DNA of 64,000 bases from Escherichia virus TH15, in sequence record MT446392.1, one strand, 5' to 3'. The notes under the pieces were generated by a model that saw only the letters and a program-made list of their open reading frames with translations, made no database searches and was not told where the DNA came from. Below, piece by piece: positions 9,725-61,936 of this stretch (the stretch's first letter is position 1; each line of letters starts with the position of its first letter). The translations under genes were made by a program, and so were the position numbers.

Positions 9725-9725
<1 letters not shown>

Positions 9726-9764
9726 TGTACAAATGAGTGTAGGTGCAGTATTATGTTCCTACAC
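9725..9764 (+). promoter_or_regulatory. early promoter cassette: -35 GTGTAC, -10 TATTAT bracketed by inverted repeat GTGTAGG/CCTACAC
   Basis: GTGTAC, 18-nt spacer, TATTAT; 7-bp inverted repeat flanks the -10; the ATG at 9753 lies inside the -10. Confidence 0.55.
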
Positions 9765-9785
9765 CAACGAACAAACGGAGTTAAA

Positions 9786-10118
9786 ATGAACATCAAGACT
9801 TATAACGAGTTTTTAGTCGAATCCGCCATCAATGAGACCAAATCAATTGATGATAGTGAAGGCTCTCTGAAATTTGGTTTATCCAAAAATGCAGATGGTG
9901 TTTTCTTTCAGATTGGTAATGAACGTTTTCAAACGTCCAAATATTCCAAAGCTGCAGTTGAAGCTGTCCTGAAATCTGGTGGCAAGTGGAAAGGCAAAGA
10001 AGGTACTAAAGAAATTGGTATCGCTGTTGACGGCGGTATGGCTTATTTCAAAATTGGTGATGAACAATTCATTATGTCTGCTCGCGGACGTAAAGAACTT
10101 GCAAAACTTTATAAATAA
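9786..10118 (+). CDS. internal-protein-like protein with capsid targeting sequence (MNIKTYNEFLVE)
   Basis: Start placed at Met 12 of ORF 9753..10118 (SD acggag); N-terminus matches the T4 IP capsid-targeting motif M-K-T-Y/F-x-E-F-x-x-E. Confidence 0.6.
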   Translation: MNIKTYNEFLVESAINETKSIDDSEGSLKFGLSKNADGVFFQIGNERFQTSKYSKAAVEAVLKSGGKWKGKEGTKEIGIAVDGGMAYFKIGDEQFIMSARGRKELAKLYK

Positions 10119-10126
10119 GGTTTCTT

Positions 10127-10399
10127 ATGAAAACTTTCAATGAATTTTTCAACGAGTCCCAACTGAATGAAGAAGTAAAAATTAGTAAATCAGTCAAAGC
10201 TATGATTGACAATATCAATCACCTGTATAGCATTGACTTAACTGACCATATAACAATTGGCAACAAACGCAACTTTTTCGCGTTTGACATTTCAGAACTT
10301 GACCAGAACCAAATTAATAACATTGAGCGTTTTGCCAATGATAAGGGTCTCCGCCACGAGACAGCTGGTTATAAAAAATATGCAATTTATCTAAAATAG
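10127..10399 (+). CDS. internal-protein-like protein with capsid targeting sequence (MKTFNEFFNE)
   Basis: 90 aa; CTS-type N-terminus. Confidence 0.6.
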   Translation: MKTFNEFFNESQLNEEVKISKSVKAMIDNINHLYSIDLTDHITIGNKRNFFAFDISELDQNQINNIERFANDKGLRHETAGYKKYAIYLK

Positions 10400-10407
10400 G
10401 ATTTCAA

Positions 10408-10707
10408 ATGCAAACTTTTCATGAATTTTTGGTAGAAAACAATTACCTGGCGGAAGCAAAAACCTGGCCTCTGGGCCTTCAGAAGAAAAACACCTACAAA
10501 TGGGTTGACTTCAAAGGCAAAGGCGACGCTGAAGACTTTGACCAGCTGCGTAAAAATGGTTATACCTTCCTTGACTCTAACTATAATAAAATTACCTCAT
10601 TTGGTCAGAAATCCAGCATCGCATATATTGAAACTGGTAAAAACACCCCTAAGAACATCACTGACGACTTCGCAGCTTATGGCGTGATTCGCGGTTCAAA
10701 AATGTAA
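10408..10707 (+). CDS. internal-protein-like protein with capsid targeting sequence (MQTFHEFLVE)
   Basis: 99 aa; CTS-type N-terminus. Confidence 0.6.
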   Translation: MQTFHEFLVENNYLAEAKTWPLGLQKKNTYKWVDFKGKGDAEDFDQLRKNGYTFLDSNYNKITSFGQKSSIAYIETGKNTPKNITDDFAAYGVIRGSKM

Positions 10708-10742
10708 TGTACATGATGGGATAACTGCAGTATAATTATCCC
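10707..10742 (+). promoter_or_regulatory. early promoter cassette: -35 ATGTAC, -10 TATAAT inside palindrome GGGATA...TATCCC
   Basis: -35-like hexamer, 18-nt spacer, TATAAT; GGGATA(n6)TATAAT-TATCCC palindrome; leader ATCAACTACTGGAG. Confidence 0.6.
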
Positions 10743-10762
10743 ATCAACTACTGGAGCTACTA

Positions 10763-11041
10763 ATGAAAACTTATCAAGAATTTATTAACGAATCAATTAG
10801 TCACCCGGATATGCTGGAAGACCTGAAAGGACATCTGATGGTTAAGGCCAAACCGGTTGATGGTGGCGCATTTGAGTTGTTTCTTGTTAAAGGCGAAAAC
10901 GGTCCTGATAACAAGAAAGTTTCAGCAATGATGTTGACTAAAGGTTACAAAGTCAGTTCTTCCTGGAATGCTCCATTCACTTACGCGGTAAGCCCTCGTG
11001 AACTGAAAAAAGTTAAAGCTGGACAATATACAAAAATTTAG
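10763..11041 (+). CDS. internal-protein-like protein with capsid targeting sequence (MKTYQEFINE)
   Basis: 92 aa; N-terminus matches the T4 IPI/IPII/IPIII targeting peptide. Confidence 0.65.
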   Translation: MKTYQEFINESISHPDMLEDLKGHLMVKAKPVDGGAFELFLVKGENGPDNKKVSAMMLTKGYKVSSSWNAPFTYAVSPRELKKVKAGQYTKI

Positions 11042-11076
11042 TGTACGTGATGGGATAGTTGCAGTATAATTATCCC
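11041..11076 (+). promoter_or_regulatory. early promoter cassette: -35 GTGTAC, -10 TATAAT inside palindrome GGGATA...TATCCC
   Basis: Near-identical copy (about 85 bp) of the cassette at 10707 including the first codons of the downstream gene. Confidence 0.6.
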
Positions 11077-11096
11077 ATCAACTACTGGAGCTACTA

Positions 11097-11351
11097 ATGA
11101 AAACTTATCAAGAATTTATTAACGAAGCCGCAGATGCAAAAGTTGAGTTTGCTTACGTTGGTTCCCCGCGCGGCAGTTTTTCTAATGAAGAATTCCGTCG
11201 TTCACTGGACAATTTCATGCAGTTAAGTGCTGAAGTATCGCATGATGGCCGTTATGACATCGTTACTATTAGCGGTTCTGAAGACCTTATCAAAAAGTGG
11301 TACAAGCAGAAAGATGTTGAGATGCGTTACTATCGTATCCCTAAAAAATAA
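11097..11351 (+). CDS. internal-protein-like protein with capsid targeting sequence (MKTYQEFINE)
   Basis: 84 aa; CTS-type N-terminus. Confidence 0.65.
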   Translation: MKTYQEFINEAADAKVEFAYVGSPRGSFSNEEFRRSLDNFMQLSAEVSHDGRYDIVTISGSEDLIKKWYKQKDVEMRYYRIPKK

Positions 11352-11386
11352 GTGTACATTTGAATGGGATAGCGTATAATTATCCC
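11352..11386 (+). promoter_or_regulatory. early promoter cassette: -35 GTGTAC, -10 TATAAT inside palindrome GGGATA...TATCCC
   Basis: GTGTAC, 17-nt spacer, TATAAT; palindrome; leader ATCAACTACTGAGGAG. Confidence 0.6.
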
Positions 11387-11408
11387 ATCAACTACTGAGG
11401 AGAATAAA

Positions 11409-11594
11409 ATGAAACGTTGCGAATTAATTAGAAATGTTACTGCCATTGTTGCTGTTACCGCTTTTGGTTTTAGCATGTTTGCTGGCTTTATGTTGAATAT
11501 GCTTTCAACTTCTGAGAATATAATCTCTTTAGTAGTGGCATTCTTAATTGGTTCAATCTCTTTTGTTATGGATAAAATCTCTAAAGGTGAGTAA
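11409..11594 (+). CDS. small hydrophobic protein (two predicted TM segments)
   Basis: 61-aa ORF behind a promoter cassette with SD. Confidence 0.45.
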   Translation: MKRCELIRNVTAIVAVTAFGFSMFAGFMLNMLSTSENIISLVVAFLIGSISFVMDKISKGE

Positions 11595-12455: not shown

Positions 12456-12533
12456 GAGTTATGTGTTATTATTAATAAGTACCCTCTATTACCAAAGGTT
12501 CTTCCCTCAAAGAACCTCTCATAATAGAATTAA

Positions 12534-12607
12534 GGCCCTGTAGCTGGACGGTCAAGCGAGCGACTCATAATCGCTGGATGGTGGTTCGATTCCACCCAGG
12601 GCCACCA
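12534..12607 (+). tRNA. tRNA with anticodon CAU (Met, or Ile if lysidine-modified)
   Basis: Hand-folded cloverleaf: acceptor GGCCCTG/CAGGGCC, anticodon stem AGCGA/TCGCT with loop CTCATAA, T-arm GGTGG-TTCGATT-CCACC, encoded CCA. Confidence 0.7.
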
Positions 12608-12741
12608 AACTTATTTTAAATTATCATGGCGATAGGTATTGTAGATGCGGTTCGATTCCGTCCGGGGTAAGTGCCCTAGCATGCTTGGAGCATGAGTGAC
12701 TTAATATTGGTGGTTCGAGTCCACCCCGCTATGAACAAACA
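12608..12741 (+). other. tRNA-like remnants or small structured RNA: two T-arm-like hairpins without a complete cloverleaf
   Basis: GCGG-TTCGATT-CCGT (about 12647-12661) and GGTGG-TTCGAGT-CCACC (about 12709-12725); no matching acceptor strands found by hand. Confidence 0.3.
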
Positions 12742-12817
12742 CGAGGCATAGCTCAGAAGGAAGAGCAAGGACCTTCTAAGTCCTAGGTCGTAGGTTCGAT
12801 TCCTACTGTCTCGACCA
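12742..12817 (+). tRNA. tRNA-Arg (anticodon UCU)
   Basis: Hand-folded cloverleaf: acceptor CGAGGCA/TGTCTCG (one G-U), D-arm GCTC/GAGC with GG loop, anticodon loop CTTCTAA, T-arm GTAGG-TTCGATT-CCTAC, encoded CCA. Confidence 0.75.
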
Positions 12818-13132
12818 AACAAGAAACCGGGTCGCTACCGGTAAGTCGTCGGACTGAAGTTCCCTGTTTAAGGACTGACATTAATAAATCTTTATGTTTT
12901 GTTAATGACCCCTTATCTCACAGCTGAAACGGCGCACCTAATTATCGATTCGAGGAAATATCTTTGCCGTAAGCCGAGTGGCGTTTTTGACGGAACGTTC
13001 GGATATGGTCGAGATATGGCCTTTTAAAAATATTGAGTAGCGTCAACTACTTGATAACCGGGTTCGAATCCCGGCGTATCGTACAAACACTTGCCTAGCA
13101 GGTGGAACCCCGACAAGGTTACCCTAGGTTAA

Positions 13133-13161
13133 AGCCCCTCCCGAAAGGTTGGGGCTTTTTT
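13133..13161 (+). terminator. rho-independent terminator after the tRNA/RNA cluster
   Basis: Hairpin AGCCCC-(12 nt loop)-GGGGCT followed by TTTTTT. Confidence 0.6.
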
Positions 13162-13168
13162 ATAAATA
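13161..13168 (+). promoter_or_regulatory. possible late promoter TATAAATA
   Basis: Exact TATAAATA about 27 nt upstream of the ATG at 13195. Confidence 0.3.
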
Positions 13169-13749: not shown

Positions 13750-13752
13750 TCG

Positions 13753-13777
13753 AACCCGCTCCGGCGGGTTTATTTTT
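13753..13777 (+). terminator. rho-independent terminator
   Basis: AACCCGC-TCCG-GCGGGTT followed by T-tract. Confidence 0.6.
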
Positions 13778-13796
13778 AATATTTCTTCAAAAAGTA

Positions 13797-13826
13797 GTGT
13801 ACATCCGGATTGACCGGGTGCATAAT
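13797..13826 (+). promoter_or_regulatory. early promoter cassette: -35 GTGTAC, -10 CATAAT, ACTGAGTTAC-type leader
   Basis: GTGTAC, 18-nt spacer, CATAAT; leader GATTCCATACTGAGTTAC shared with cassettes at 14864, 33166 and 33755. Confidence 0.5.
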
Positions 13827-13876
13827 GATTCCATACTGAGTTACACACTGAATCACAAAAACTTTGGAGAAATAAA

Positions 13877-14302
13877 ATGAACTTTCTGACCCTGACCTCT
13901 GCATTCTCTGTTACCCGCATCACTAACAAAATGGTTGCTGATGAAGTATGTGAAATCTGCATTCGTGAAGATGCACTTATCCATCTGACTTCAACCCAAA
14001 TTGTTGCCATCGCCAAGTCCCTTAATTCTGAACTGAAGGTAAACACCAAACAGTCAAAAGAATCCATCATTGAATTAATCCAAGCTGAAATGATTGAATT
14101 CCCAATTGAAGAAGTTAAAGAAGAAAAAATCCAGTCCAAATCTGGTAACGCCCGTGACATTTGCTTCCAGGCATTTGCAGAAATTGATATGAATGATAAT
14201 GCAGCTCGTCGCGCTCTGATTGATGACCTGGTTACTACCCATGATATCAAAAAGACTGTTGTTCAGTCTTATGCTTCCAACTTCCGCAAAGCTCAAAAAT
14301 AA
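13877..14302 (+). CDS. hypothetical protein; C-terminal domain shared with the next gene (...VVQSYASNFRKAQK)
   Basis: 141 aa; C-terminal 45 aa paralogous to the C-terminus of 14386..14829. Confidence 0.5.
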   Translation: MNFLTLTSAFSVTRITNKMVADEVCEICIREDALIHLTSTQIVAIAKSLNSELKVNTKQSKESIIELIQAEMIEFPIEEVKEEKIQSKSGNARDICFQAFAEIDMNDNAARRALIDDLVTTHDIKKTVVQSYASNFRKAQK

Positions 14303-14313
14303 TTGAGAAAAGT

Positions 14314-14349
14314 GTTTTACTTCCAAGTGGGATAGTGTATAATTATCCC
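14314..14349 (+). promoter_or_regulatory. early promoter cassette: -35 GTTTTAC, -10 TATAAT inside palindrome GGGATA...TATCCC
   Basis: 17-nt spacer; palindrome flanks the -10. Confidence 0.55.
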
Positions 14350-14385
14350 ATACTGAGTTACCAAATAAACAAACGGGATAATAAA

Positions 14386-14829
14386 ATGAAAACTTCAAAA
14401 CTGGTTAAGTACGTTAAACTGGCATTAAACAACTCTTCTGAAGCTGAAGCGCAATCCGCAGCGCGTATGTTCTTCAAACGTCTGACAGCTGAAGGTATTT
14501 CATTTAACCCGGCAGTATTTGGTATCACTCGTGGCGAAGCTGCTAAACTGGCAACTCTGGCAGGTAAAATTTTTAAAGGTCTGAATGATGGACAGGTTAA
14601 ACCAGAAGTTAAACCTACTCCTAAAGCTGAACCAAAAGCTGAGTGTAAGGCACCTAAACGCTCCGGTATGAGCAACAAAGATTTATGCTATGATATGTTC
14701 AAAACTGTTAATATGTCTAATGGTGCTGCTCGCAGAGCTGTTATTGATATGATTGTGCGTGAGTTTGGATTCAACAAAGCATCAGTTCAATCTTATGCTT
14801 CCAACTTCCGCAAAGAATTTGAAATTTAA
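14386..14829 (+). CDS. hypothetical protein; C-terminal domain shared with the previous gene (...SVQSYASNFRKEFEI)
   Basis: Start placed at Met 18 of ORF 14335..14829 (MKTSKL..., SD gggataa); earlier ATG lies inside the promoter. Confidence 0.5.
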   Translation: MKTSKLVKYVKLALNNSSEAEAQSAARMFFKRLTAEGISFNPAVFGITRGEAAKLATLAGKIFKGLNDGQVKPEVKPTPKAEPKAECKAPKRSGMSNKDLCYDMFKTVNMSNGAARRAVIDMIVREFGFNKASVQSYASNFRKEFEI

Positions 14830-14836
14830 TTCAAAA

Positions 14837-14861
14837 AGGGGGTATACAAGCCCCCTGCTTT
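14837..14861 (+). terminator. hairpin terminator whose loop carries the -35 of the next promoter
   Basis: AGGGGG-TATACAAG-CCCCCT then GCTTT; loop contains GTATAC positioned 18 nt upstream of CATAAT (14866-14871). Confidence 0.5.
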
Positions 14862-14910
14862 AAGGCATAATGATTCCATACTGAGTTACCAAATAAAACT
14901 GGAGAATAAA

Positions 14911-15216
14911 ATGAAATTCATCATCAACCTGGCGCTTGTTGACTTTGATAAAACTGGTAATTTCGCATCTGCTGAAAATATGATTCGCAACACTAAGTTC
15001 AAAGTGCAAGTCCAGCAGGCGGTAGCAAAAGAGTTCTTTACTGATAAATTAACCCACGTTGTCAATCACCTGAATGTGCAAGTTAAATTCACTCGTAAAG
15101 CAGAAACTACAGTTGAATTTGATTTTGAATGTCGTTACCATGATGAATATGTTCGCCGCATCCTTAATATTGTATCTGATGAACTTTACTATGGTGTGCA
15201 GGAAAACAAAATCTAA
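14911..15216 (+). CDS. hypothetical protein
   Basis: 101-aa ORF behind a promoter cassette; SD ctggagaa. Confidence 0.5.
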   Translation: MKFIINLALVDFDKTGNFASAENMIRNTKFKVQVQQAVAKEFFTDKLTHVVNHLNVQVKFTRKAETTVEFDFECRYHDEYVRRILNIVSDELYYGVQENKI

Positions 15217-15220
15217 ATCA

Positions 15221-15256
15221 GTGTACGCTTTAACGGGAACATGATAGTATGTTCCC
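15221..15256 (+). promoter_or_regulatory. early promoter cassette: -35 GTGTAC, -10 TAGTAT bracketed by inverted repeat GGGAACAT/ATGTTCCC
   Basis: 18-nt spacer; 8-bp perfect inverted repeat around the -10. Confidence 0.55.
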
Positions 15257-15292
15257 TGGATAATAAAACATTAACCAACTGAAGGAAATACC

Positions 15293-15886
15293 ATGAATAC
15301 TTTAAAGAAACTTGTTGAATTCATCCGCTCCAAACTGGGTACTGCAATGGCACAAAACCTGTCTATTGAAGACCAATATACTAAAGCGGCAACAACCCTG
15401 ATTGACAAGATTACTGAGCTCCAGACTGCCCACGTTAAGTCTGTTAATGAAGAAAAACGCATCCGCGAGTTAGCGAATGAAAAAGACCAGCTCGCTGCTT
15501 CAAAAGAGCGTGAAATCCGTAAACTGATTGCTGATGGTGCTGATGTTCAGGTCCATGCTAAACTAGGTCTCCTGTATCGCCACACGGCTAAACAACTTCG
15601 TAAGAAGGCAGATGATTATGTTGAAATGCGTAATGAAATTAAATTGAAAGTTAAAGAGCTGGATGATTCTCGTCAGGAACTAGCTGTTAAACTGGAATAC
15701 ATCCGCGAAACTCGTAAGGTATCTGCCCTGGGTATTGCGACTGCAGATGATGTTGTTGAAATCGCTGCATTGACTAAGATTGATATTGAAGACACTCTGA
15801 TGCGTGTTGAAACCTTCAAAGGCCCACAGGTTGGTGTGGATACCACATCCGCTGACATTGAAGAATACATCAATTCACTTAAGTAA
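15293..15886 (+). CDS. hypothetical coiled-coil protein
   Basis: 197 aa, charged and helical composition. Confidence 0.5.
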
Positions 15887-18412: not shown

Positions 18413-18456
18413 AATTATCACAAGGATGTGATAGGAGGACTTATGCACAAGATTTA

Positions 18457-18486
18457 GTATACAAGTCTAAAGAAACATAGTATCAT
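18457..18486 (+). promoter_or_regulatory. early promoter-like element: -35 GTATAC, -10 TATCAT
   Basis: 18-nt spacer; leader CTCGTCAACTAATGAGGAAA precedes the ATG at 18515. Confidence 0.4.
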
Positions 18487-18514
18487 TATCTCGTCAACTA
18501 ATGAGGAAATCAAT

Positions 18515-18745
18515 ATGTGGTATTACGCCCCAATGGCTGATGAGCCTGTGAAAATTAGTCGCGCTAAGTTTACAAAGATTTACGGCCTCGTTTATAAGAA
18601 GTCTGATTACGGTGTTCGTTTTGAAGATGCACACTGTATCAACGACCCTTATAATGAAGACCTCTATGGCAAATTGGTTCCTATCGTTAAGGGGTCCGCC
18701 TCTGAGATGATAGATGAATCTAATATCTCTGCTGCTGAAATTTAA
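18515..18745 (+). CDS. hypothetical protein
   Basis: 76-aa ORF with SD. Confidence 0.45.
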   Translation: MWYYAPMADEPVKISRAKFTKIYGLVYKKSDYGVRFEDAHCINDPYNEDLYGKLVPIVKGSASEMIDESNISAAEI

Positions 18746-18763: not shown

Positions 18764-19723
18764 ATGATGTTAGTTATTGGCTCTCGCGCATTACATAACG
18801 CCGGTCTGATTGAAAGTAAGAAAATTGAAAACTCTGATTGGGATTTTATCGCTGACCAGGGTTCCTGGAACAGCTTTAAAACCCAGATGATGGGGCAGCA
18901 TGTTCATGTGGATAACCCAGATGTGCAAGCTTTTAAATGTATGCACAATGGTAAAGAAACTTATTTTGAAGCGTACATCGTCCGCGCACTGACAAGTGTT
19001 CGTGAGTTGACTGATGAGTTGCAAGAGGAAGATTTTACTTCCAGTTATCGTCTGCTCAAATATGCAAAGGCAAATATTCAGAAAGACCGTCTATCTGGTT
19101 TTTACTGGGCGACCCCTGATATTTGTCTGGCAATTAAATTGTCTCATCGTTACCTGAAGAACAATCCATTCTTCCTGAAGACAATGAGCCATATTAATTA
19201 CCTTCGTAATAAGGGTGTTGTTCTTAATGATGAACTACAAAAAATCATGCAACAACGACAGGCAGAAACACTGTCATATAGTCACCCTAAACTAGACGTG
19301 GGCAAGAAAACTTTCTTTAATGATACAATCTATACCCTTGACCATGACTCCATCCACGAGGCCGTGGCGCTTGCTGATAAGCCTGCATATAAGTTCTATA
19401 TGAAGGATGATTCAGAAGTCATGACCTCACGTGAAAAATTTGAAGCACTCCCTGATGTTATTAAACTGGCAGGGGTTTATGAAGAAGCATGTGTGCTCGC
19501 TCTGGAGCGTTCGCAGGTTCCTAACGAGTTTAGTATCCCGGCCAGTCATAGCTTCCATATGGCTCTGGAAAAAGTCTGCACCTCCATTACTTCTGGATGG
19601 TTTCGTGAGTATGCCTGGGAACATTACCAGGATGTGGTTAATATGTACAACACCCTGGGTCGCGAAGACTATGTTAAACGTTTCAAGGCTAACCAGCATT
19701 TAATTCGTCCTTTTTCAAAATAA
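18764..19723 (+). CDS. Pol-beta-superfamily nucleotidyltransferase-like protein (function unknown)
   Basis: 319 aa; N-terminal VIGSRA ... SDWDF ... ETYFEAYIV arrangement fits the hG[GS]-x(9-13)-D-x-[DE] minimal NTase signature. Confidence 0.4.
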   Translation: MMLVIGSRALHNAGLIESKKIENSDWDFIADQGSWNSFKTQMMGQHVHVDNPDVQAFKCMHNGKETYFEAYIVRALTSVRELTDELQEEDFTSSYRLLKYAKANIQKDRLSGFYWATPDICLAIKLSHRYLKNNPFFLKTMSHINYLRNKGVVLNDELQKIMQQRQAETLSYSHPKLDVGKKTFFNDTIYTLDHDSIHEAVALADKPAYKFYMKDDSEVMTSREKFEALPDVIKLAGVYEEACVLALERSQVPNEFSIPASHSFHMALEKVCTSITSGWFREYAWEHYQDVVNMYNTLGREDYVKRFKANQHLIRPFSK

Positions 19724-19725
19724 GT

Positions 19726-19755
19726 GTGTACAACCAAATGGGGCTATGACATAAT
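19726..19755 (+). promoter_or_regulatory. early promoter cassette: -35 GTGTAC, -10 CATAAT
   Basis: 18-nt spacer. Confidence 0.5.
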
Positions 19756-19782
19756 GGTCCCACAATCAATGAGGAAAATATT

Positions 19783-21728: not shown

Positions 21729-21739
21729 TAAATACACAT

Positions 21740-22952: not shown

Positions 22953-22989
22953 TTTACATCTCCAAACGATAGGGTTATAATGACCCTAT
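22952..22989 (+). promoter_or_regulatory. early promoter cassette: -35 GTTTAC, -10 TATAAT bracketed by inverted repeat ATAGGGT/ACCCTAT
   Basis: 18-nt spacer; 7-bp inverted repeat around the -10; leader ATCAACTACGGAG. Confidence 0.55.
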
Positions 22990-53285: not shown

Positions 53286-53504
53286 ATGAATACTGAAATT
53301 AAACAAGAATTGATGAATGACATTAAAGTTGCTTATGGATTGACTGAAGACCAGACCGTATTTGACCTTGATGAAGATTTACAGCTAGAATTCCAAAAAG
53401 AATTTGAAAGGGCTGTTAATCCAAACTGCAAAGTTTTCCAAGCCGTTATTAAAACTATTACATCCGAAGGCGTAAGGTATACTCGTCATGCGGTAGAAAT
53501 TTAA
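53286..53504 (+). CDS. hypothetical small protein
   Basis: Start at Met 23 of ORF 53220..53504, right after the regA stop. Confidence 0.4.
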   Translation: MNTEIKQELMNDIKVAYGLTEDQTVFDLDEDLQLEFQKEFERAVNPNCKVFQAVIKTITSEGVRYTRHAVEI

Positions 53505-53509
53505 AGCAA

Positions 53510-53529
53510 AGGGACTTCGGTCCCTTTTG
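53510..53529 (+). terminator. UUCG-loop hairpin / weak terminator upstream of gene 43
   Basis: AGGGAC-TTCG-GTCCCT followed by TTTGT; then TAGTATAAT -10-like element at 53531-53538. Confidence 0.45.
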
Positions 53530-53589
53530 TAGTATAATAGCGTCAAGTCATAAAACAAAAGTCAATCACTCGACTATAAAGGAAACCAA

Positions 53590-55113
53590 ATGCAAGAATT
53601 TTATTTAACTATCGAACAAATCGGTGACAACCTGCTCGAACGGTACATTGACAAGAATGGTCATGAACGTGTTCGTGAAATCCCTTATGCTCCATGCTTG
53701 TTTATGCATGCTCGCGAAGACCAGGCTGCAAAGTATACAGACATCTATAATAAAGGTTGTGTGAAAAAAGAATTCGATTCCATGCGTGATGCATCCCAGT
53801 GGATGAAGCGCATGAACGATATGGGCCTCGAAGCTATGGGTATGGACGATTTCAAACTCGCGTACCTGAGCGACCGTTACCCACATGAAATCAAATACGA
53901 TTCAAGTAAAATCCGTGTGGCTAACTTCGATATCGAGGTGACATCTCCTGATGGGTTCCCTGAGCCGTCTGAAGCACGTCACCCTATCGATGCCCTGACG
54001 CACTATGATTCGGTAGACGATAAATTCTATGTCTTTGACCTTTTGAGCTCGCCATACGCCACTGTGGAGCAATGGTCTATTGATATTGCTGCTAAGCTGC
54101 AGGAAGATGGCGGTGATGAAGTCCCCGAAGAAATCCTGGAAAAAATTGTTTATATGGCTTTCGATTCAGAAGAAGAAATGCTCCAGCAGTATTTGGTATT
54201 CTGGAACGAGAAAACTCCGGTTATGTTAACTGGTTGGAACATCGAGAAATTTGATATTCCGTATATCTACAACCGCATTAAAAATGTATTTGGTGAAGCT
54301 ACGGCCAAACGTCTGAGCCCACATCGTCGTACAAAAGTTAAAGTCATTAACAACGGCTTTGGTGAAGAACAAGAAATCATTCAGATTCTGGGTATCTCTG
54401 TTCTGGATTATCTGGACCTGTACAAAAAGTTCAGCTTCACAAACCAACCGTCTTACTCGTTGGACTATGTTGCGGAATCTGAGCTGGGTGTTGGTAAACT
54501 TCCGTATGATGGCCCGATTTCTAAATTACGTGAATCCAATCACCAGCGATACATCAGCTATAACATCATTGACGTTTATCGTGTTGTGCAGATTGACCGT
54601 AAGCGACAGTTCATTAACCTGAGCCAATCGATGGGTTATTATGCAAAGATGCAGATTCAGTCTGTATTCAGCCCAATCAAAACTTGGGATGCGATTATCT
54701 TTAACAGTCTGAAGACTCAAAACAAGGTTATCCCTGAAACCAAATCACATGTTCGTCAATCGTTCCCTGGTGCATTTGTTAAGGAACCGATTCCGAACGC
54801 ATACAAATATGTAATGAGCTGTGACTTAACATCTCTGTATCCGAGCATCATCCGACAGATTAACATCAGTCCAGAAACGATTGCCGGGTCATTTGCACCA
54901 GCCCAGATGCACGAATACATCGCAGGAACTGCTGACCGTCCATCTGATGCATTTAGTTGTGCGCCAAATGGTATGATGTATTTTAAAGATGTTGCGGGTA
55001 TTATTCCGACAGAAGTTGAGAAAGTTTTTAATCAACGAAAAACCGAAAAGAAAAAGATGTTGGCGGCACAACGTAATAGTGAATTGATTAAAGAAATTTT
55101 ACATGGAAAATAA
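53590..55113 (+). CDS. 43: DNA polymerase gp43, N-terminal segment (exonuclease and N-terminal domains)
   Basis: 507-aa ORF ending in a stop; contains B-family polymerase N-terminal and 3'-5' exonuclease regions (e.g. FDIEV); continues in ORF 55791..56966. Confidence 0.85.
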   Translation: MQEFYLTIEQIGDNLLERYIDKNGHERVREIPYAPCLFMHAREDQAAKYTDIYNKGCVKKEFDSMRDASQWMKRMNDMGLEAMGMDDFKLAYLSDRYPHEIKYDSSKIRVANFDIEVTSPDGFPEPSEARHPIDALTHYDSVDDKFYVFDLLSSPYATVEQWSIDIAAKLQEDGGDEVPEEILEKIVYMAFDSEEEMLQQYLVFWNEKTPVMLTGWNIEKFDIPYIYNRIKNVFGEATAKRLSPHRRTKVKVINNGFGEEQEIIQILGISVLDYLDLYKKFSFTNQPSYSLDYVAESELGVGKLPYDGPISKLRESNHQRYISYNIIDVYRVVQIDRKRQFINLSQSMGYYAKMQIQSVFSPIKTWDAIIFNSLKTQNKVIPETKSHVRQSFPGAFVKEPIPNAYKYVMSCDLTSLYPSIIRQINISPETIAGSFAPAQMHEYIAGTADRPSDAFSCAPNGMMYFKDVAGIIPTEVEKVFNQRKTEKKKMLAAQRNSELIKEILHGK

Positions 55114-55801
55114 ATTGCATTTTGTGTATAAAATTACAAATAACATTAATGGTAAAATTTACATCGGTGTTCACAGCACCGATGATATTAATGATGGATA
55201 TTTGGGCAAAGGTACTTTAATTCAGAAAGCTATTAAAAAATATGGGAAATCTAATTTTAAAAAGGAAATTTTGGAATTTTTCGAGGACCGCACTTCAGCC
55301 TTTGACAAAGAGCGAGAGCTTGTAACCAGAGAATTTGTCAGTTTGACAACAAACTATAATTTAAAAACTGGCGGCGAAGGTGGTGCAATGTATGGTAAAA
55401 CCAATCCGATGTATGGTCGAACATATAGGAAGTCGGAATCAGAGAAGACCCAAATTTCGTTGCGATTTAAAAATGTTCCCAAAACCAACCAGCACAAACA
55501 AAACCTATCCAATTCATTACTCGGTAAACCCAGACCGGACATCGCTGAGAGACAGCGCGGATTGTTACCCTGGAATGTTAATTCTATTCGCAATAACAAA
55601 ACCAGACTAAGAAAATTCGCCGACCTGGATATTATTTTCGATTATTGGTCTAGTCATAAATGTGGTGTTAAAGCATTAGCGAATTGGTATCAACTGGCGA
55701 CGTATAATGAATTAGCATCCGTTATGCGATTCATTAAAAAGTATGGTGACCCGCGACTGAATGGTGATTGGAAAAAATTTAAGGCTGACTATGAATATTG
55801 A
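55103..55801 (+). CDS. GIY-YIG homing endonuclease inserted within gene 43
   Basis: 232 aa; HFVYKITNNINGKIYIGVHS is a GIY-(10 aa)-YIG module; MYGKTNPMYGRT repeats; overlaps both polymerase ORFs by about 11 nt. Confidence 0.75.
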   Translation: MENKLHFVYKITNNINGKIYIGVHSTDDINDGYLGKGTLIQKAIKKYGKSNFKKEILEFFEDRTSAFDKERELVTREFVSLTTNYNLKTGGEGGAMYGKTNPMYGRTYRKSESEKTQISLRFKNVPKTNQHKQNLSNSLLGKPRPDIAERQRGLLPWNVNSIRNNKTRLRKFADLDIIFDYWSSHKCGVKALANWYQLATYNELASVMRFIKKYGDPRLNGDWKKFKADYEY

Positions 55802-56966
55802 TTATAATGCTGATTTTACAGAAGAACAAATCGAATACTTAAAAACTTTGTCTAAAGATGAATTGGAACACCATTTATACAATTCTCAAATGGCTGAAGT
55901 AGCTGCAAACACCGCGCAGATTAACCGTAAACTGCTTATCAATAGCTGTTATGGTGCTCTGGGCAATATCTGGTTCCGTTACTTTGACCTGCGAAATGCA
56001 ACTGCGATTACATCTTTCGGGCAACTTGCATTGCAGTGGATTGAGCGTAAAGTTAACGAATACTTCGATAGTGTTTGTGGTACAAGTGGTGAGACTTACG
56101 TATTCTATGGCGATACTGACTCCATTTATATCCAGTGCGATAACCTGATTAAAAAGGTTGGTGGTGAATCTAAATTCCGCGATACAAACCACCTGGTTGA
56201 CTTCATGGACAAGTTTGCAAAAGACCGTCTGGAACCGGCAATTGATAAAGCTTTCCGTGAACTGGCCGAATACATGAACAATAAACAGCACCTTATGTTT
56301 ATGGACCGTGAAGCGATTGCATGTCCTCCGCTGGGTTCTAAAGGCGTGGGTGGATTCTGGACGGCGAAGAAGCGTTATGCGTTGAACGTGTATGATATGG
56401 AAGGCACACGATATGCTGTTCCGAAACTGAAAATTATGGGTCTGGAAACTCAAAAGTCGAGCACTCCAAAAGCATGTCAGAAAGCTCTGAAAGAATGTAT
56501 CCGTCGCATGCTGCAAGAAGGTGAAGAATCTCTGCAGACATACTTCAAGGAATTCAATAAGGAATTTAATGAGCTTAACTACATGACCATCGCAGGTGTA
56601 TCATCGGTTAACAACATCCAGAAATATAATGAGGGCGGTTTCCCTGGATTTAAGTGCCCGGCTCATATCAAAGGTGTGCTTGCATATATGCGTGCAACTA
56701 AAGGGCTGAAGACTGTTCCGCAAATCATGGAAGGGGAAAAGGTGTATGTGCTTCCTCTTAAAGTTGGTAATCCGTTTGGCGAAACCGTGATTGCGTGGCC
56801 ATCAGGGATTGAACTCCCGATTGAAATTCGTGACCAAGTCTTGCAGTGGATGGACTACAACACACTGTTCCAGAAGACTTTTGTTAAGCCATTGACAGGG
56901 TTCTCTGAAGCAGCTAAGGTTGATTACGAGAAAAAAGCATCTCTTTTTGATATGTTTGATTTTTAA
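55791..56966 (+). CDS. 43: DNA polymerase gp43, C-terminal segment (palm/thumb, motif C YGDTDS)
   Basis: Start at Met 11 of ORF 55761..56966; INSCYGALGN and YGDTDSIY polymerase motifs. Confidence 0.85.
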   Translation: MNIDYNADFTEEQIEYLKTLSKDELEHHLYNSQMAEVAANTAQINRKLLINSCYGALGNIWFRYFDLRNATAITSFGQLALQWIERKVNEYFDSVCGTSGETYVFYGDTDSIYIQCDNLIKKVGGESKFRDTNHLVDFMDKFAKDRLEPAIDKAFRELAEYMNNKQHLMFMDREAIACPPLGSKGVGGFWTAKKRYALNVYDMEGTRYAVPKLKIMGLETQKSSTPKACQKALKECIRRMLQEGEESLQTYFKEFNKEFNELNYMTIAGVSSVNNIQKYNEGGFPGFKCPAHIKGVLAYMRATKGLKTVPQIMEGEKVYVLPLKVGNPFGETVIAWPSGIELPIEIRDQVLQWMDYNTLFQKTFVKPLTGFSEAAKVDYEKKASLFDMFDF

Positions 56967-57038
56967 GTGTTTACAATGGCAAAGGATTGCCGTATGATTA
57001 CTCCATCAATTACTGATGATTAACTTAAGGATATTAAA

Positions 57039-57281
57039 ATGGAAACATTAATTGCGGGTACTGTTGTTCTTGGTGCTGGTTCTTTCTTCTTGGCTGCACT
57101 GACCTATTTTCTACCGTGGATTATCGCGCTACTGCGTGGAACCAAAAGTAATTGCGGAATCTTCTTTGTTAACCTTCTGTTAGGTTGGACAATGGTTGGG
57201 TGGTTTATTGCGTTTATTTGGGCACTCGTTGCTGAACGTAAATCAAACGCACAGTTAATTATCATCAAGGAAACCAAATGA
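57039..57281 (+). CDS. imm: superinfection immunity membrane protein Imm
   Basis: 80 aa with two TM helices, downstream of gene 43 as in T4. Confidence 0.6.
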   Translation: METLIAGTVVLGAGSFFLAALTYFLPWIIALLRGTKSNCGIFFVNLLLGWTMVGWFIAFIWALVAERKSNAQLIIIKETK

Positions 57282-59533: not shown

Positions 59534-60957
59534 AAACTATTTTATCCCAGCTACTCTTTAACAAGGAATATTTTGTTAAAGTCTGGCCATATCTGAATAA
59601 TACATATTTTGAAAAGGGTCCTGCGAAGACCCTTTTTAATACGATTAACGAACATGTAAAAGAATATCAAGCAGTGCCAACTAAGACTGCACTTGATATC
59701 GCGCTCGACGGTTCTGACCTTTCTGAAGTTGAATATGAAGGCACAAAGAAACTCTTAGGAGTCCTGGCCGATACTCCAGAAGACCAGGAATGGTTGGTCA
59801 GAGAAACCGAGAAGTATGTACAGAAGTCTGCGATGTTCAATGCCACATCCAGGATTATCGAAATCCAGAGTAATGCCGAACTTCCGAAAGATAAGCGTGA
59901 TAAACGAATCCCGGATATCGGGGCTATCCCTGACATTATGCGCGATGCATTGTCTATTTGTTTTGACTCTGCTCTGGGCCATGACTGGTTAAACGATTAC
60001 GAAGCTCGATTCCAGACTTATCTGAACAAATCGAAGAAAGTTCCGTTCCGTATTAACATCCTGAATAAAATTACGAAGGGTGGAGTTGAGTACGGTACAG
60101 AGAACGTTTTACTAGCCGGGACAAACGTCGGGAAATCCCTTGGACTCTGTTCATTAGCCGCTGACTATCTTCAGACTGGTCATAACGTTCTTTATATAAG
60201 CATGGAAATGGCTGAAGAAGTATGTGCCAAACGTATTGATGCCAACTTGCTGGATGTGTCTCTGGATGATATTGATGAAGGTCATATATCATGGGCGGAA
60301 TATAAAGCTAAGATGGAAAAATGGCGTGCTTCCGGGACTCTCGGGACTCTGAAGATAAAACAATATCCAACTGGGGGCGCGCATGCGGATACCTTCCGTG
60401 CATTACTGAACGAGTACAAACTGAAGCAAGGATTTGTACCAGATGTGATTATTGTTGACTACCTGGCAATCTGCGCAAGCTCAAGACTGAAAACGTTTAC
60501 CGAAAACAGTTACGGCCTGATTAAGATGGTTGCAGAAGAACTTCGTGGTCTGGCGGTCGAGAAAAATGTGGTCCTATGGACCGCGGCGCAGACAACCAGG
60601 GGCGCGAACGTTGCAGCTGAGATTGATATGGCTGACATCGCAGAATCCTTTGGTATTGCTCACACGGCTGACTTTATGTTGGGTGTTGTTGAGACCGAAG
60701 AATTCGCTCAAATGGGACTGCAGTTAATCAAACAGCTTAAGTCTCGTTATGGCGATAAGAACTACTATAATAAATTCAAGATGGGTGTTAAGAAAGGTAA
60801 TCAACGCTGGTATGAGGTTGATGATGATTCAGCTCCTAAACAAGGCCCTACGGTGAAAGAAGCCACTGGTGAGATGAATCGTCAGGCTGAAATGAATAGA
60901 CAAACCAGGGTCAACAGGAGCGACCTGGATGACCTTGCCGCTCAAATGAAATTTTAA
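59518..60957 (+). CDS. 41: replicative DNA helicase gp41
   Basis: 479 aa with GTG start (59518 or 59527); ...LFNKEYFVKVWPYLNNTYFE...GTNVGKSLGLCSLAADYLQTGHNVLYISMEMAEE... closely parallels T4 gp41. Confidence 0.9.
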   Translation: MVEVVETILSQLLFNKEYFVKVWPYLNNTYFEKGPAKTLFNTINEHVKEYQAVPTKTALDIALDGSDLSEVEYEGTKKLLGVLADTPEDQEWLVRETEKYVQKSAMFNATSRIIEIQSNAELPKDKRDKRIPDIGAIPDIMRDALSICFDSALGHDWLNDYEARFQTYLNKSKKVPFRINILNKITKGGVEYGTENVLLAGTNVGKSLGLCSLAADYLQTGHNVLYISMEMAEEVCAKRIDANLLDVSLDDIDEGHISWAEYKAKMEKWRASGTLGTLKIKQYPTGGAHADTFRALLNEYKLKQGFVPDVIIVDYLAICASSRLKTFTENSYGLIKMVAEELRGLAVEKNVVLWTAAQTTRGANVAAEIDMADIAESFGIAHTADFMLGVVETEEFAQMGLQLIKQLKSRYGDKNYYNKFKMGVKKGNQRWYEVDDDSAPKQGPTVKEATGEMNRQAEMNRQTRVNRSDLDDLAAQMKF

Positions 60958-60968
60958 AATATTTTAAA

Positions 60969-60989
60969 AGGGGCTTACAGCCCCTTTTT
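60969..60989 (+). terminator. rho-independent terminator after gene 41
   Basis: AGGGGC-TTACA-GCCCCT followed by TTTTTC. Confidence 0.65.
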
Positions 60990-61002
60990 CTTATGTTATA
61001 AT
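60973..61002 (+). promoter_or_regulatory. early promoter overlapping the terminator loop (-35 GCTTAC, -10 TATAAT)
   Basis: 18-nt spacer; leader GACCCTATCAACTACTGGAG. Confidence 0.45.
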
Positions 61003-61028
61003 GACCCTATCAACTACTGGAGAATAAA

Positions 61029-61346
61029 ATGAAAACTATTGATTGCAAAGCGGAATACAAAGTTTATTATCATGGCTCAAGCTCTAATGCTGGAATCCAA
61101 AATATGCTTTGCCCTCCTGATGCAACTGGTGTTCTGTCAGAAGTTGGGCGCAAGAAAAATTTAGGGCGTGTGTTTTTTACTGAAGATATTGGTTTGGCAC
61201 GTATCTATGCAGGAAGAGCAGCTCGTTCAGTGGGAGGAGAACCCCGTCTTTATCGTGTGATTGCACCTGTTGATGTGGTTTGTTTAAATGATACTAAAGG
61301 CGCAACAGTTTATCACGCAGACTGGGCGTTTTGTGAGGAAATCTAA
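61029..61346 (+). CDS. small protein with ADP-ribosyltransferase-fold-like H-G-S motif (tentative)
   Basis: 105 aa; KVYYHGSSSNAGIQNML...GRVFFTEDIGLARIYA resembles the H-G-S ... aromatic ... acidic layout of PARP/Tpt1-type folds. Confidence 0.3.
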   Translation: MKTIDCKAEYKVYYHGSSSNAGIQNMLCPPDATGVLSEVGRKKNLGRVFFTEDIGLARIYAGRAARSVGGEPRLYRVIAPVDVVCLNDTKGATVYHADWAFCEEI

Positions 61347-61559
61347 ATGTATAAATTAGAGAACGTAGTGTTTATTGGTTGGTTTGAAAATGGTAATATG
61401 TTTACCAAAGAAACCGCGCTGGATGTTAGTGACCAAAAAATGATTGAATGGGTTACGGTGCAGTATGCAGAGGTGAATAATGCGCTGGTGAAAGCCTTTG
61501 TTAATGACAATAAAGTTTTTGAATGTGATTATCGTATCCACTTATCTGAGGAAATCTAA
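61347..61559 (+). CDS. hypothetical small protein, paralogue of 61560..61901
   Basis: 70 aa; shares the ...NNALVKAFVNDNKVFECD block with the next ORF; junction GAGGAAATCTAAATG on both sides. Confidence 0.45.
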   Translation: MYKLENVVFIGWFENGNMFTKETALDVSDQKMIEWVTVQYAEVNNALVKAFVNDNKVFECDYRIHLSEEI

Positions 61560-61901
61560 ATGGCTTTTAATCCAGAAGACCGCGTAAAAGTAACAATCAA
61601 AGTGAGTGCTGTTGGCGTTCCATCTTTTGAGCGCTCAAGTATGTTCCATCCCGCAGGTATTCACTGGTATGTTCAGAAGACTGCTGATAACTATAATGCG
61701 CTTGTTGAAGCTTTTGTTGATGACAAGCTAATTCATAAAGTAGACATGCGTAAGGGTACCGCATTGCGTAATCTGATTTTGACCGTTGAAGCGCAACTGT
61801 TAAATGAAGAAATCTGCCTTACTGATATTGAAGCAGCTCTTCATATTGCACGTGCTGAATATTACAACTTGACCGGTTTTTCAGTTGAAGGCGAAAAATA
61901 A
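61560..61901 (+). CDS. hypothetical protein, paralogue of 61347..61559
   Basis: 113 aa; shares the ...YNALVEAFVDDKLIHKVD block. Confidence 0.45.
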   Translation: MAFNPEDRVKVTIKVSAVGVPSFERSSMFHPAGIHWYVQKTADNYNALVEAFVDDKLIHKVDMRKGTALRNLILTVEAQLLNEEICLTDIEAALHIARAEYYNLTGFSVEGEK

Positions 61902-61936
61902 GTGTACAACAAAGGGATAATGCAGTATATTATCCC
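61902..61936 (+). promoter_or_regulatory. early promoter cassette: -35 GTGTAC, -10 TATATT inside palindrome GGGATAA...TATCCC
   Basis: 18-nt spacer; leader ATCAACTACTGAGGAG. Confidence 0.55.

Follow-up and report, generated by a model that had tools for sequence, protein, structure and literature searches.

Genes and predicted promoter sites of the window

The DNA analysed here, a stretch of 64,000 nucleotides from Escherichia virus TH15 (record MT446392.1) that is called the window throughout, carries upstream of its small early genes a recurrent cassette in which a predicted early promoter, a stem-loop and a short leader are combined. A 10-kb piece of the window matches 838 phage records, the best being the Escherichia phages TH40 and VR7 (about 97% identity), followed by VR26, VR25, VR20, SP18 and others of the same genus. 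By these matches the window is assigned to Gaprivervirus (VR7/SP18 group), among the T4-like Tevenvirinae. Compared with the VR7 annotation, the gene order on the + strand begins with genes 4, 2, 3, 1, 57A/B, the ip genes and the tRNA cluster, continues with e, denV, vs, regB, tk, rI, mobD, nrdC, 49, 55, 47/46, 45/44/62 and regA, and ends with 43, imm, uvsX, 41, dmd, sp and then gene 61. From 6.4 kb on, the window is transcribed left to right, and the part from gp57B to gene 61 (+ strand) corresponds to the early, 'hyperplastic' arm that is classical for T4-type genomes.

All intergenic gaps of at least 40 nt were inspected, and 28 promoter-like sites were aligned on their -10 hexamer. Most of them (22/28) lie within 9.7-43.7 kb, the small-gene region (ip, tRNA, e, vs, tk, mobD, nrdC, 55.x); in this alignment no cassette is found among the late genes at 6.4-9.7 kb and the replication genes hold few. 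A generic scan with sigma70 and terminator consensus sequences returned 69 promoter-like sites against 57.5 expected, with the cassettes among the top + strand matches, and was rejected as proof of the cassettes because it does not discriminate. An Rfam 15 scan of the whole window detected two tRNAs only, and no family covers the stems or the leaders. The cassettes and related sites are as follows, with free energies of folding (dG) in kcal/mol, scores against dinucleotide shuffles (z), and internal-protein-like genes written as IP-like.

9713-9788, + strand: cassette; -35 GTGTAC at 9725, -10 TATTAT at 9749, ATG at 9786; stem 9737-9743/9758-9764 with the -10 in its loop (z=-3.1)
10695-10765, + strand: cassette; -35 ATGTAC, -10 TATAAT at 10731, leader ATCAACTACTGGAG, ATG at 10763 (IP-like gene); stem 10715-10745 of 10-11 bp with the -10 in its loop (dG -11.4)
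11029-11099, + strand: cassette; -35 GTGTAC at 11041, -10 at 11065, ATG at 11097; stem 11048-11080 of 10 Watson-Crick bp, 13-14 with G.U (dG -16.9)
11339-11411, + strand: cassette; -35 GTGTAC at 11352, -10 at 11375, leader ATCAACTACTGAGGAG, ATG at 11409; stem 11364-11388, ATGGGATA/TATCCCAT (dG -9.5)
13752-13879, + strand: cassette; -35 GTGTAC, -10 CATAAT at 13821, long leader CCATACTGAGTTAC, ATG at 13877; terminator hairpin 13752-13771 with T-run; spacer stem 13802-13820 (dG -9.4)
14302-14388, + strand: cassette; -35 TTTTAC, -10 at 14338, long leader, ATG at 14386; stem 14327-14351 with the -10 in its loop (dG -12.2)
14830-14913, + strand: cassette; -10 CATAAT at 14866, long leader, ATG at 14911; GC hairpin 14837-14856, GGGGG-TATACAA-GCCCCC, with the -35 in its loop (dG -12.4)
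15209-15295, + strand: cassette; -35 GTGTAC at 15221, -10 TAGTAT at 15245, third leader class GGATAATAAAA, ATG at 15293; stem 15235-15256, GGGAACAT/ATGTTCCC (dG -11.0)
18445-18517, + strand: cassette without a convincing stem; -35 GTATAC, -10 TATCAT at 18481, ATG at 18515
19714-19785, + strand: cassette; -35 GTGTAC, -10 CATAAT at 19750, ATG at 19783; stem 19739-19762, UGGGGCUAU/AUGGUCCCA, with two G.U pairs
22940-23010, + strand: cassette upstream of denV; -35 GTTTAC at 22952, -10 at 22976, ATG at 23008; stem 22968-22990, GATAGGGT/ACCCTATC (dG -12.1)
23401-23475, + strand: cassette with a weak A/T stem only; -35 GTGTAC at 23413, -10 at 23437, ATG at 23473 (IP-like gene)
23726-23768, + strand: degraded half cassette; -35 GTTTAC at 23739, 5' arm GGGATA at 23753, -10 at 23762 fused to ATG at 23766
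25892-25963, + strand: cassette upstream of regB; -35 GTGTAC at 25904, -10 TATGAT at 25928, 3' arm TATCCC only, ATG at 25961
29779-29877, + strand: cassette; terminator hairpin 29779-29804 (UUCG loop, dG -15.2, 6 T in the next 8 nt), -35 GTTTAC at 29817, spacer stem 29820-29842, -10 TACTAT at 29841, ATG at 29875
33107-33216, + strand: cassette; terminator hairpin 33107-33126 (dG -13.3, 7 T in the next 8 nt), -35 GTGTAC, -10 CATAAT at 33168, weak imperfect stem 33156-33181, long leader, ATG at 33214
33720-33802, + strand: cassette; -35 GTGTAC, -10 CATAAT at 33756, long leader, ATG at 33800; stem 33742-33771 of 12-14 bp with G.U (dG -15.4), all Watson-Crick in VR7
34309-34390, + strand: extended -10 promoter; TGGTATAAT at 34345, AGGA-tetraloop stem 34331-34348 overlapping the -10, ATG at 34388
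36428-36499, + strand: cassette, identical in all five relatives compared; -35 GTTTAC at 36440, -10 at 36464, ATG at 36497; AGGA-loop stem 36447-36458 and weak -10-centred stem 36459-36477
41577-41652, + strand: cassette; GC hairpin 41583-41604 with the -35 GTGTAC in its loop (dG -11.3), -10 TATCAT at 41613, 3' arm TATCCC only, ATG at 41650
42698-42785, + strand: extended -10 promoter; TGGTATAAT at 42734, no GTKTAC -35, third leader class, ATG at 42783; stem 42724-42745, GGGGTCAT/ATGACCCC, with the promoter inside (dG -13.8)
43622-43689, + strand: extended -10 promoter upstream of gene 55; TGATATAAT at 43658, AGGA-tetraloop stem 43644-43661
53497-53592, + strand: terminator hairpin 53506-53530 (UUCG loop) and TATAAT at 53533, upstream of gene 43
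56957-57041, + strand: cassette upstream of imm; -35 GTTTAC at 56969, -10 TATGAT at 56993, ATG at 57039; AGGA-tetraloop spacer stem 56976-56993 (dG -6.7)
60961-61031, + strand: cassette; terminator hairpin 60966-60988 (dG -13.8, T-run, -35-like CTTACA in its loop), -10 at 60997, 3' arm ACCCTAT only, leader ATCAACTACTGGAG, ATG at 61029
61890-61962, + strand: cassette; -35 GTGTAC at 61902, -10 TATATT at 61926, ATG at 61960; stem 61913-61937, AGGGATAAT/ATTATCCCT (dG -10.4)

Predicted promoters and leaders of the cassettes

Of the 28 sites, 22 combine an A-rich stretch, GT(G/T)TAC with at most one mismatch, a spacer of 17-18 nt and a TATAAT-like -10, in every case on the coding strand. The strict pattern (GT[GT]TAC, 15-19 nt, TAnnnT) matched 16 times on the + strand, whereas the minus strand gave 3 poor matches. 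The promoter described by the original prediction, with GTGTAC or GTTTAC as -35 element, is thereby recovered, but its statement that about 20 copies share one architecture is too high for the inverted repeat, since the -10 lies inside a hairpin loop at 13/28 sites. In the alignment, AAAA(G/A)TA precedes the -35 within an AT-rich upstream stretch, and stop codons (TAA/TAG) abut or overlap the -35, as in the open reading frame (ORF) 9270-9725, which ends where GTGTAC begins. Three sites are of the extended -10 type (34345, 42734 and 43658), the site at 53533 consists of a terminator directly followed by the -10, and at 63628 a -10-like hexamer is followed by a UUCG hairpin. It should be noted that the site at 57962, upstream of uvsX (TGCTCTA, 12 nt, TATAAT), has the look of a MotA-type middle promoter; it is one of the 28 aligned sites and was for that reason omitted from the above list. 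A MotA box (TGCTTTA) was also considered at 14866 and rejected, as it lies only 3 nt from the -10.

GAGG, GGAG or AGGA is present 5-10 nt upstream of the ATG at 27/28 sites. Both predicted leader classes exist: ATCAACTAC occurs in 8 copies on the + strand and 1 on the minus strand, and CATACTGAG in 4 and 0 copies, respectively. The leader classes form the direct-repeat families D1-D3. Besides these, a third leader, GGATAATAAAA, is present in two copies. It reads (T/A)GGATAATAAAA(C/T)-TTAA...GAAGGAA/GAGGAA at 15257-15292 and 42747-42782, in both cases after a stem of the GGGNNCAT/ATGNNCCC type; GATAATAAA is likewise found upstream of the ATG at 14386.

Stem-loops around the -10 element exceed chance

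The inverted repeats listed in the original prediction, GTGTAGG/CCTACAC (9737/9758), GGGAACAT/ATGTTCCC (15235/15249), ATAGGGT/ACCCTAT (22969/22983) and GGGGTCAT/ATGACCCC (42724/42738), were all retrieved. About 11 of the 13 stems that enclose the -10 are strong and 2 are weak. They are longer than first described, with 7-11 Watson-Crick bp and up to 14 bp when G.U pairs are included (TGATGGGATAA/TTATCCCATCA, for example, forms 11 bp), and the ten strong stems that were computed have a dG of -9.5 to -16.9 kcal/mol. Loop lengths are 5-14 nt. The arms GGGATA...TATCCC, proposed as the most frequent, are so within the stem-bearing subset but not overall, as only five pairs exist (10718/10737, 11052/11071, 11366/11381, 14329/14344 and 61914/61931).

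The register of the stems varies. In addition to the 13 stems over the -10, about five lie in the spacer (13802-13820, 29820-29842, 34331-34348, 43644-43661 and 56976-56993), three are GC hairpins with the -35 hexamer in the loop (14837-14856, 41583-41604 and 60966-60988), four are upstream terminator hairpins with a T-run (13752-13771, 29779-29804, 33107-33126 and 53506-53530) and one lies downstream (63628). Only a single arm is present at 23762, 25928, 41613 and 60997, and no convincing stem was found at 18481 and 23437; in the tally by stem position, half stems and missing stems account for 4-5 sites. About half of the promoters, although otherwise identical, are without a -10-centred repeat. 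A GC stem is combined with a T-run in 4-6 hairpins, whereas behind the -10-centred stems no more than 3 of the next 8 nt are T.

A Watson-Crick stem of at least 7 bp surrounds the -10 in 9/28 cassettes compared to 18/881 other -10-like hexamers of the window (odds ratio 23, Fisher p=2e-8). When 78 nt were folded per site, the mean z was -1.68 and z was below -2 at 12/28 sites. The original prediction had recognised that it would fail if the repeats were merely as frequent as the shared sequence predicts. This was addressed by a partner-swap control, in which the left half of each cassette was joined to the right half of another, so that the shared sequence was kept. Native pairing prevailed, both in how many stems reached 6 bp (p=0.005) and in mean stem length (p=0.00025). 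Because several cassettes have arms in common, this control is conservative. These results demonstrate that the -10-centred stems occur far above chance.

Arm sequences vary while pairing is kept

The arms differ and yet stay complementary, as in GTGTAGG, GATGGGATAA, GGGAACAT, GGGGTCAT, GATAGGGT, AGGGATAAT and GTATGGGAGCGT. The subfamily formed by GGGNNCAT, 6 nt and ATGNNCCC has a constant geometry and is represented by four loci and their orthologous variants. Its eight core pairs are standard pairs in 80/80 cells, with double changes in two pairs (A-U/G-C and C-G/U-A/A-U) and G.U variants in four. None of 500 shuffles matched the observed covariation, and slid registers pair at 37-50% as compared to 89%.

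Orthologous cassettes were compared in VR7, TH22, TH41, TH44 and TH55, a comparison that covers 0-50 kb of the window. Substitutions in the arms are mostly transitions that swap Watson-Crick and G.U pairs. The stem at 19750, which has GGGGCTAT in the TH15 window, is a perfect 10-bp GTGGGACCAT/ATGGTCCCAC in TH44 and TH41; the stem at 33756 has CCC in VR7 and CCT in TH15; an arm TATCCC has become TATCTC in TH41 and TH55; and the stem at 22976 carries two wobbles in TH41. The spacer stem at 13821 shows a compensatory double change from G-C to A-T in TH41, and a C-G to T-A change distinguishes the stem at 43644-43661 from its paralogue at 34331-34348. With a helix finder blind to the type of mismatch, 10 G.T, 0 A.C and 2 other mismatches were obtained. 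When counted over all predicted pairs, exchanges between Watson-Crick and G.U numbered 11 against 5 from Watson-Crick to A.C, most of these 5 being at helix ends; for the -10-centred stems, a reading of the substitution list gave 10 against 1.

Since a G.T pair is meaningless for the recognition of duplex DNA, the structure under selection would be a fold of the + (sense) strand. The pattern of substitutions points to a fold of RNA or, less likely, of single-stranded DNA, and not to a protein-binding palindrome. This is in agreement with the original prediction, which had argued for a structure rather than a single protein site; the variable loop length and register argue in the same direction.

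A model for the cassette

The cassettes are in all likelihood composite regulatory cassettes of T4-like phage of the promoter-early stem-loop (PeSL) type. Each occupies a gap of 55-130 bp before a small early gene. The stop codon of the upstream gene, within an A-rich, UP-like stretch, is followed by a predicted T4-type early promoter for the host sigma70 RNA polymerase and then by a short conserved leader with a GAGG/GGAG Shine-Dalgarno sequence, the stem-loop being laid over the promoter at a variable register. The polymerase may start at the A of ATCAAC or ATACTG, some 7 nt beyond the -10 and at or just past the 3' arm. With such a start, the cassette's own transcript could not form the stem, and only read-through RNA (or a displaced + DNA strand) could.

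At the GC hairpins with T-runs, read-through would be terminated intrinsically or attenuated, as assayed for one stem of RB49/phi1. The -10-centred stems, given their paucity of T, are unlikely to be intrinsic terminators and would most likely be attenuators, or barriers to 3'-exonucleases that fix a stable 3' end of the upstream message. The latter role agrees with the view that the 3' ends of T4 early transcripts are stable RNA ends and not termination sites (PMC6024815, in which the Pe class of T4 early promoters is also cited). Each unit of promoter and small gene would in this way be self-contained, and the repeated cassette (up to 96 nt, 95% identity) could offer homology for adding, removing or swapping small genes. 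Most simply, the overlap of stem and promoter would be a consequence of compaction, one message ending and the next one starting within 55-60 bp.

A stronger proposal is that the -10 stems are no terminators at all but dedicated RNA elements of read-through transcripts, serving as exonuclease barriers or processing signals at the next start, and that the AGGA hairpins are a second, similar RNA signal of family-wide occurrence. We consider this possible but do not favour it. If true, polycistronic early RNA would be trimmed to per-gene units, each 3' end coinciding with the 5' end of the next transcript, and a module of promoter and gene would be autonomous in synthesis and decay and hence freely exchangeable.

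The AGGA hairpin has a constant CA-AGGA-TG centre and is found at 18416-18433, 34331-34348, 36447-36458, 43644-43661 and 56976-56993; none was found on the minus strand of the window. It also occurs in T4 (L003, between rIIA.1 and gene 60) and at loci L005, L008, L010, L011, L030 and L035. Its outer stems covary (TATCACA/TGTGATA, TTATACCA/TGGTATAA, TATCA/TGATA, GGCAA/TTGCC, CCACA/TGTGG and CATCCA/TGGATG). The hairpin is mostly found in early-promoter spacers, where its 3' arm reaches the -10, and its conservation extends to at least three genera, including JS98-like phages.

Cassettes and genome rearrangements

Chained BLAST alignments of the window with the five relatives yielded 81 unique breakpoint edges, approximate in position, that border indels or replacements of 40 bp or more. 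The intervals from -75 to +80 nt of the cassette -10s, which cover 7.6% of the sequence, contain 18/81 edges (p=3e-5). Among the edges at gene junctions, 36% are located at cassette-bearing junctions compared to 21% expected (p=0.009). The enrichment is modest and in line with the PeSL papers. Suitable substrates for recombination are present, such as the 96-nt repeats (family D5) at 10697 and 11031-11126, which are 95% identical and the first of which includes the cassette at 10695-10765.

Individual events were also inspected. In TH44, the right border of an additional IP-like gene (89 aa) coincides exactly with the -35 of the denV cassette. In VR7, a 216-aa putative homing-endonuclease gene is inserted just upstream of the cassette at 19750, and two extra ORFs just upstream of the terminator at 33107. 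Finally, at the place of the half cassette that the window and VR7 keep (23726-23768), TH44 carries an intact cassette and an IP-like gene of 65 aa; compared to TH44, the half cassette is without the 3' arm, the leader and one IP-like ORF. The deletion made use of family D4, the repeated coding sequence for the N-terminal 'MKTYQEFI', together with a short repeat at the -10. None of these four events showed a scar of direct cassette-to-cassette recombination.

At the half cassette, the ATG of a 99-aa IP-like ORF overlaps the -10 (TATAATG), and this gene has lost its leader and Shine-Dalgarno sequence. Family D4 (10125, 10761, 11095, 23471, 23764 and 63463) comprises six small genes that share an N-terminus of the 'MKT(Y/F)QEFI' type, which resembles the capsid-targeting sequences of T4 internal proteins. 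Through this repeat the homology of the cassettes continues into coding sequence, and at least one deletion had its crossover there.

The comparisons with the relatives lend modest support to the idea that cassettes may mark module borders, their part in recombination being associative only. The module shuffling mentioned in the original prediction finds modest support in the enrichment of breakpoints at cassettes, but most edges lie elsewhere and the clearest cases are homing endonucleases or recombination in coding repeats. The same enrichment could be explained at the DNA level, by a + strand hairpin or cruciform that would serve as a recombination or template-switch site and move modules, possibly as mini-circles, with no role in RNA. 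G.T pairs are tolerated in single-stranded DNA as well. However, duplex DNA does not readily extrude cruciforms from stems of 6-10 bp with loops of 5-14 nt. The stems of RB49 and phi1 blocked sequencing reactions on a single-stranded template and one crossover was mapped inside a loop, but further crossovers lay upstream of the stem and in the stretch separating the -10 from the ATG, which fits plain homology (PMC2839356). The best-resolved event of the window used repeated coding sequence and not a stem. On balance, this explanation appears improbable.

Points against the model and remaining alternatives

Several results weigh against the composite-cassette model. The five A.C events that appear once every predicted pair is counted weaken the initial contrast of 10 to 0, and the density of substitutions is alike in paired and unpaired cassette columns (18/600 versus 30/856). 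The covariation comes from about 4-6 independent loci, and the structure tested was derived from the same sequences. No U-tracts follow the -10-centred stems, so the terminator activity described for RB49/phi1 is not simply transferable to them. As many as 63/81 breakpoint edges are away from cassettes, and the insertions inspected correspond to a homing endonuclease, to genes without their own cassette and to recombination in repeated coding sequence. Promoter activity, transcription start, RNA-level role and recombination mechanism are, moreover, all deduced from the letters of the genome.

A repeat centred on the -10 is a natural place for a repressor, and a dimeric phage or host protein bound to such a palindrome might switch the early promoters off (or on). 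Five cassettes do have the same arms GGGATA/TATCCC, and GGG...CCC is kept in most arms. Nevertheless, no half-site conserved at a fixed spacing was found across the cassettes: at least six different arm sequences retain complementarity, loop length is variable, the stem occurs at the spacer and the -35 as well as at the -10, the mismatches are biased to G.T over A.C, and the repeat is lacking in about half of the promoters, which are otherwise identical. An operator is very unlikely on these grounds.

A translational switch would operate if upstream sequence masked the ribosome-binding site in read-through RNA only, as for T4 genes e, soc and 49; a T4 promoter embedded in such a masking structure was reportedly described by McPheeters in 1986 and in related work. 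The embedding is similar here, and the Shine-Dalgarno sequence is predicted to be paired only in read-through RNA at 13821, 14338, 22976, 36464 and 56993. However, the 3' arm ends 10-40 nt before the Shine-Dalgarno sequence, and over 27 cassettes its predicted pairing in read-through RNA (0.64) did not exceed that of shuffled (0.60, p=0.14) or foreign upstream sequence (0.62, p=0.34). Masking was therefore rejected as a general mechanism, and we give the switch very little credence.

Finally, stems without selected function, inherited by duplication of one ancestral palindromic cassette, would account for the paralogous copies (families D1-D3, D5 and D9) and for paired columns being no more conserved than unpaired ones, but are hardly to be reconciled with the partner-swap result, with at least six distinct arm sequences that are each self-complementary, with double and wobble-only changes at orthologous and paralogous sites, and with the presence of the feature, with unrelated arms, in T4 and JS98-like contigs.

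Other features of the window

The DNA polymerase gene 43 is split (53590-56966). ORF 53590-55113 (507 aa) encodes the PolB exonuclease domain and the N-terminal part of the polymerase domain, the remainder of which is encoded by ORF 55761-56966 (401 aa). An insertion of about 0.8 kb that carries a GIY-YIG (SegE-like) endonuclease ORF (55103-55801) causes the split. Gene 43 of VR7 is uninterrupted, and Rfam detected no group I intron at the split. A 728-bp insertion at 21735-22464 (ORF 21740-22495), absent from all five relatives, lies directly upstream of the lysozyme gene e and encodes a 251-aa HNH and NUMOD3 homing-endonuclease-like protein. At 39558-40634, a gene for a 358-aa SegE-type GIY-YIG endonuclease lies in a segment for which each of the relatives examined has different DNA.

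Two tRNA genes, Met-CAT and Arg-TCT, are located at 12534-12607 and 12742-12817; the VR7 record annotates tRNA-Met only. The tRNA cluster is among the most rearranged segments across the relatives, with breaks at 12527-13164. Between genes 46 and 45, the insertions 48368-49142 and 49758-50630 are specific to the window when compared to VR7 and TH44. The minus-strand ORF 48376-49293 (305 aa) has only a weak zinc-ribbon match, and ORF 49752-50639 (295 aa) has no Pfam match. A 45-nt direct repeat (D10, 93% identical) at 62655-62699 and 63016-63060 is located at the 3' ends of two adjacent ORFs and takes in their stop/start overlap TAATATG, which suggests a tandem gene duplication near gene 61.2.

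Comparison with known systems

The original prediction named the PeSL cassettes of T4-type phages, and the published definition was found to fit the TH15 cassettes point by point. PeSLs of RB49 and phi1 consist of an upstream stop in an AT-rich region, sigma70-like boxes, a stem-loop, a Shine-Dalgarno sequence and an ATG (Arbiol et al. 2010, PMC2839356). Five subclasses were defined by the position of the stem (upstream, over the -35, between the boxes, over the -10 or downstream), of which those between the boxes or overlapping the -10 are the commonest, and G-T pairs were highlighted; terminator activity was reported for one stem, together with strong promoter activity and mini-circles arising by recombination between neighbouring PeSLs. 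PeSLs were subsequently described in PST/T4 (TTTACW N17 TAYWAT) and in nt-1/KVP40 (PmSL/PeSLs), with degraded 'half' PeSLs and a link to the shuffling of internal-protein genes (Comeau et al. 2014, PMC4122927).

In TH15, sigma70 boxes about 17 nt apart, an AT-rich stop, a stem in one of the five positions, and a Shine-Dalgarno sequence with ATG are found in many copies near small genes of the hyperplastic regions, in association with indels between close relatives. As every sequence-level feature that defines a PeSL is present, the TH15 cassettes are a further example and not a new kind of element. Within the library searched, the literature search retrieved no paper describing PeSLs in the VR7/SP18 group, nothing specific on VR7 promoters or stem-loops, and no T4 start-site or 3'-end maps. 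The PeSL concept is thus extended to a further genus, Gaprivervirus (VR7, SP18 and the TH isolates), outside the scope of both PeSL papers. The excess over chance, the covariation and the G.U-over-A.C bias pointing to a sense-strand fold, quantitative support that was absent from those papers, are added to it, as is the -10-centred register in T4. In practice, the cassettes would serve as markers of early transcription units and of places where genes are likely to be gained or lost, which may be useful for annotating or engineering therapeutic T4-like phages.

The TH15 cassettes resemble the PeSLs of RB49/phi1 in the G-T pairs of their stems, in the Shine-Dalgarno sequence and ATG at the 3' end, and in their many copies among small hyperplastic-region genes with indels nearby. 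They differ by a T-even -35, GT(G/T)TAC instead of TTGACA, by GGGATA/TATCCC-like arms instead of long polyG/polyC, and by leaders that are T-even (ATCAACTACTGAGG) or genus-specific (CCATACTGAGTTACC). The terminator, promoter and mini-circle assays concern RB49/phi1, whereas the TH15 cassettes are known from sequence. With the PeSLs of PST/T4 they share the promoter consensus, the half PeSL, as at 23726-23768, and the link to internal-protein gene shuffling. By contrast, the PST/T4 stems are described as 'just upstream of the promoter' (PMC4122927, Fig. 3 legend), whereas the dominant register in TH15 is around the -10.

The T4 GenBank record carries no promoter features, and T4 early promoters were therefore predicted by pattern. 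In the first 50 kb of T4, -10-centred stems are present at 3/13 such promoters (upstream of motB, motB.2 and dmd), and T4 has the leader ATCAACTACTGA at several Pe sites. A scan of viral contigs with the leader alone retrieved other T4-like phages with the same layout and different, complementary arms (AGGGTA/TACCCT and GGGGTA/TACCCT). The association of stem and promoter is therefore not specific to the genus.

The T4 early promoter consensus of Wilkens and Rueger comprises an A-rich UP region, a GTTTAC -35 and a TATAAT -10. The TH15 promoters share these elements and the leader ATCAACTACTGA; however, the classical consensus is a linear motif of which an overlaid stem-loop is not part. In T4 genes e, soc, 49 and I-TevI, an RNA hairpin of the longer transcripts masks the ribosome-binding site and has a promoter embedded in it. 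There, as here, the promoter lies inside a structure that only read-through RNA would form, but theirs is a late promoter with the Shine-Dalgarno sequence in the 3' arm, whereas that of TH15 is early and its Shine-Dalgarno sequence is not sequestered above control. The early promoters of phage N4 are DNA hairpins with a stem of 5-7 bp and a 3-nt loop, recognised by the virion RNA polymerase. They too coincide with an inverted repeat, but N4 uses its own polymerase, whereas the TH15 hexamers match sigma70 and about half of the promoters have no repeat. A last parallel, drawn by Arbiol et al., is with integron cassettes, in which small genes are likewise flanked by a repeated, structured and recombination-prone element and provided with a promoter; PeSLs have no integrase or attC-type chemistry, and their exchange is presumed to be homologous.

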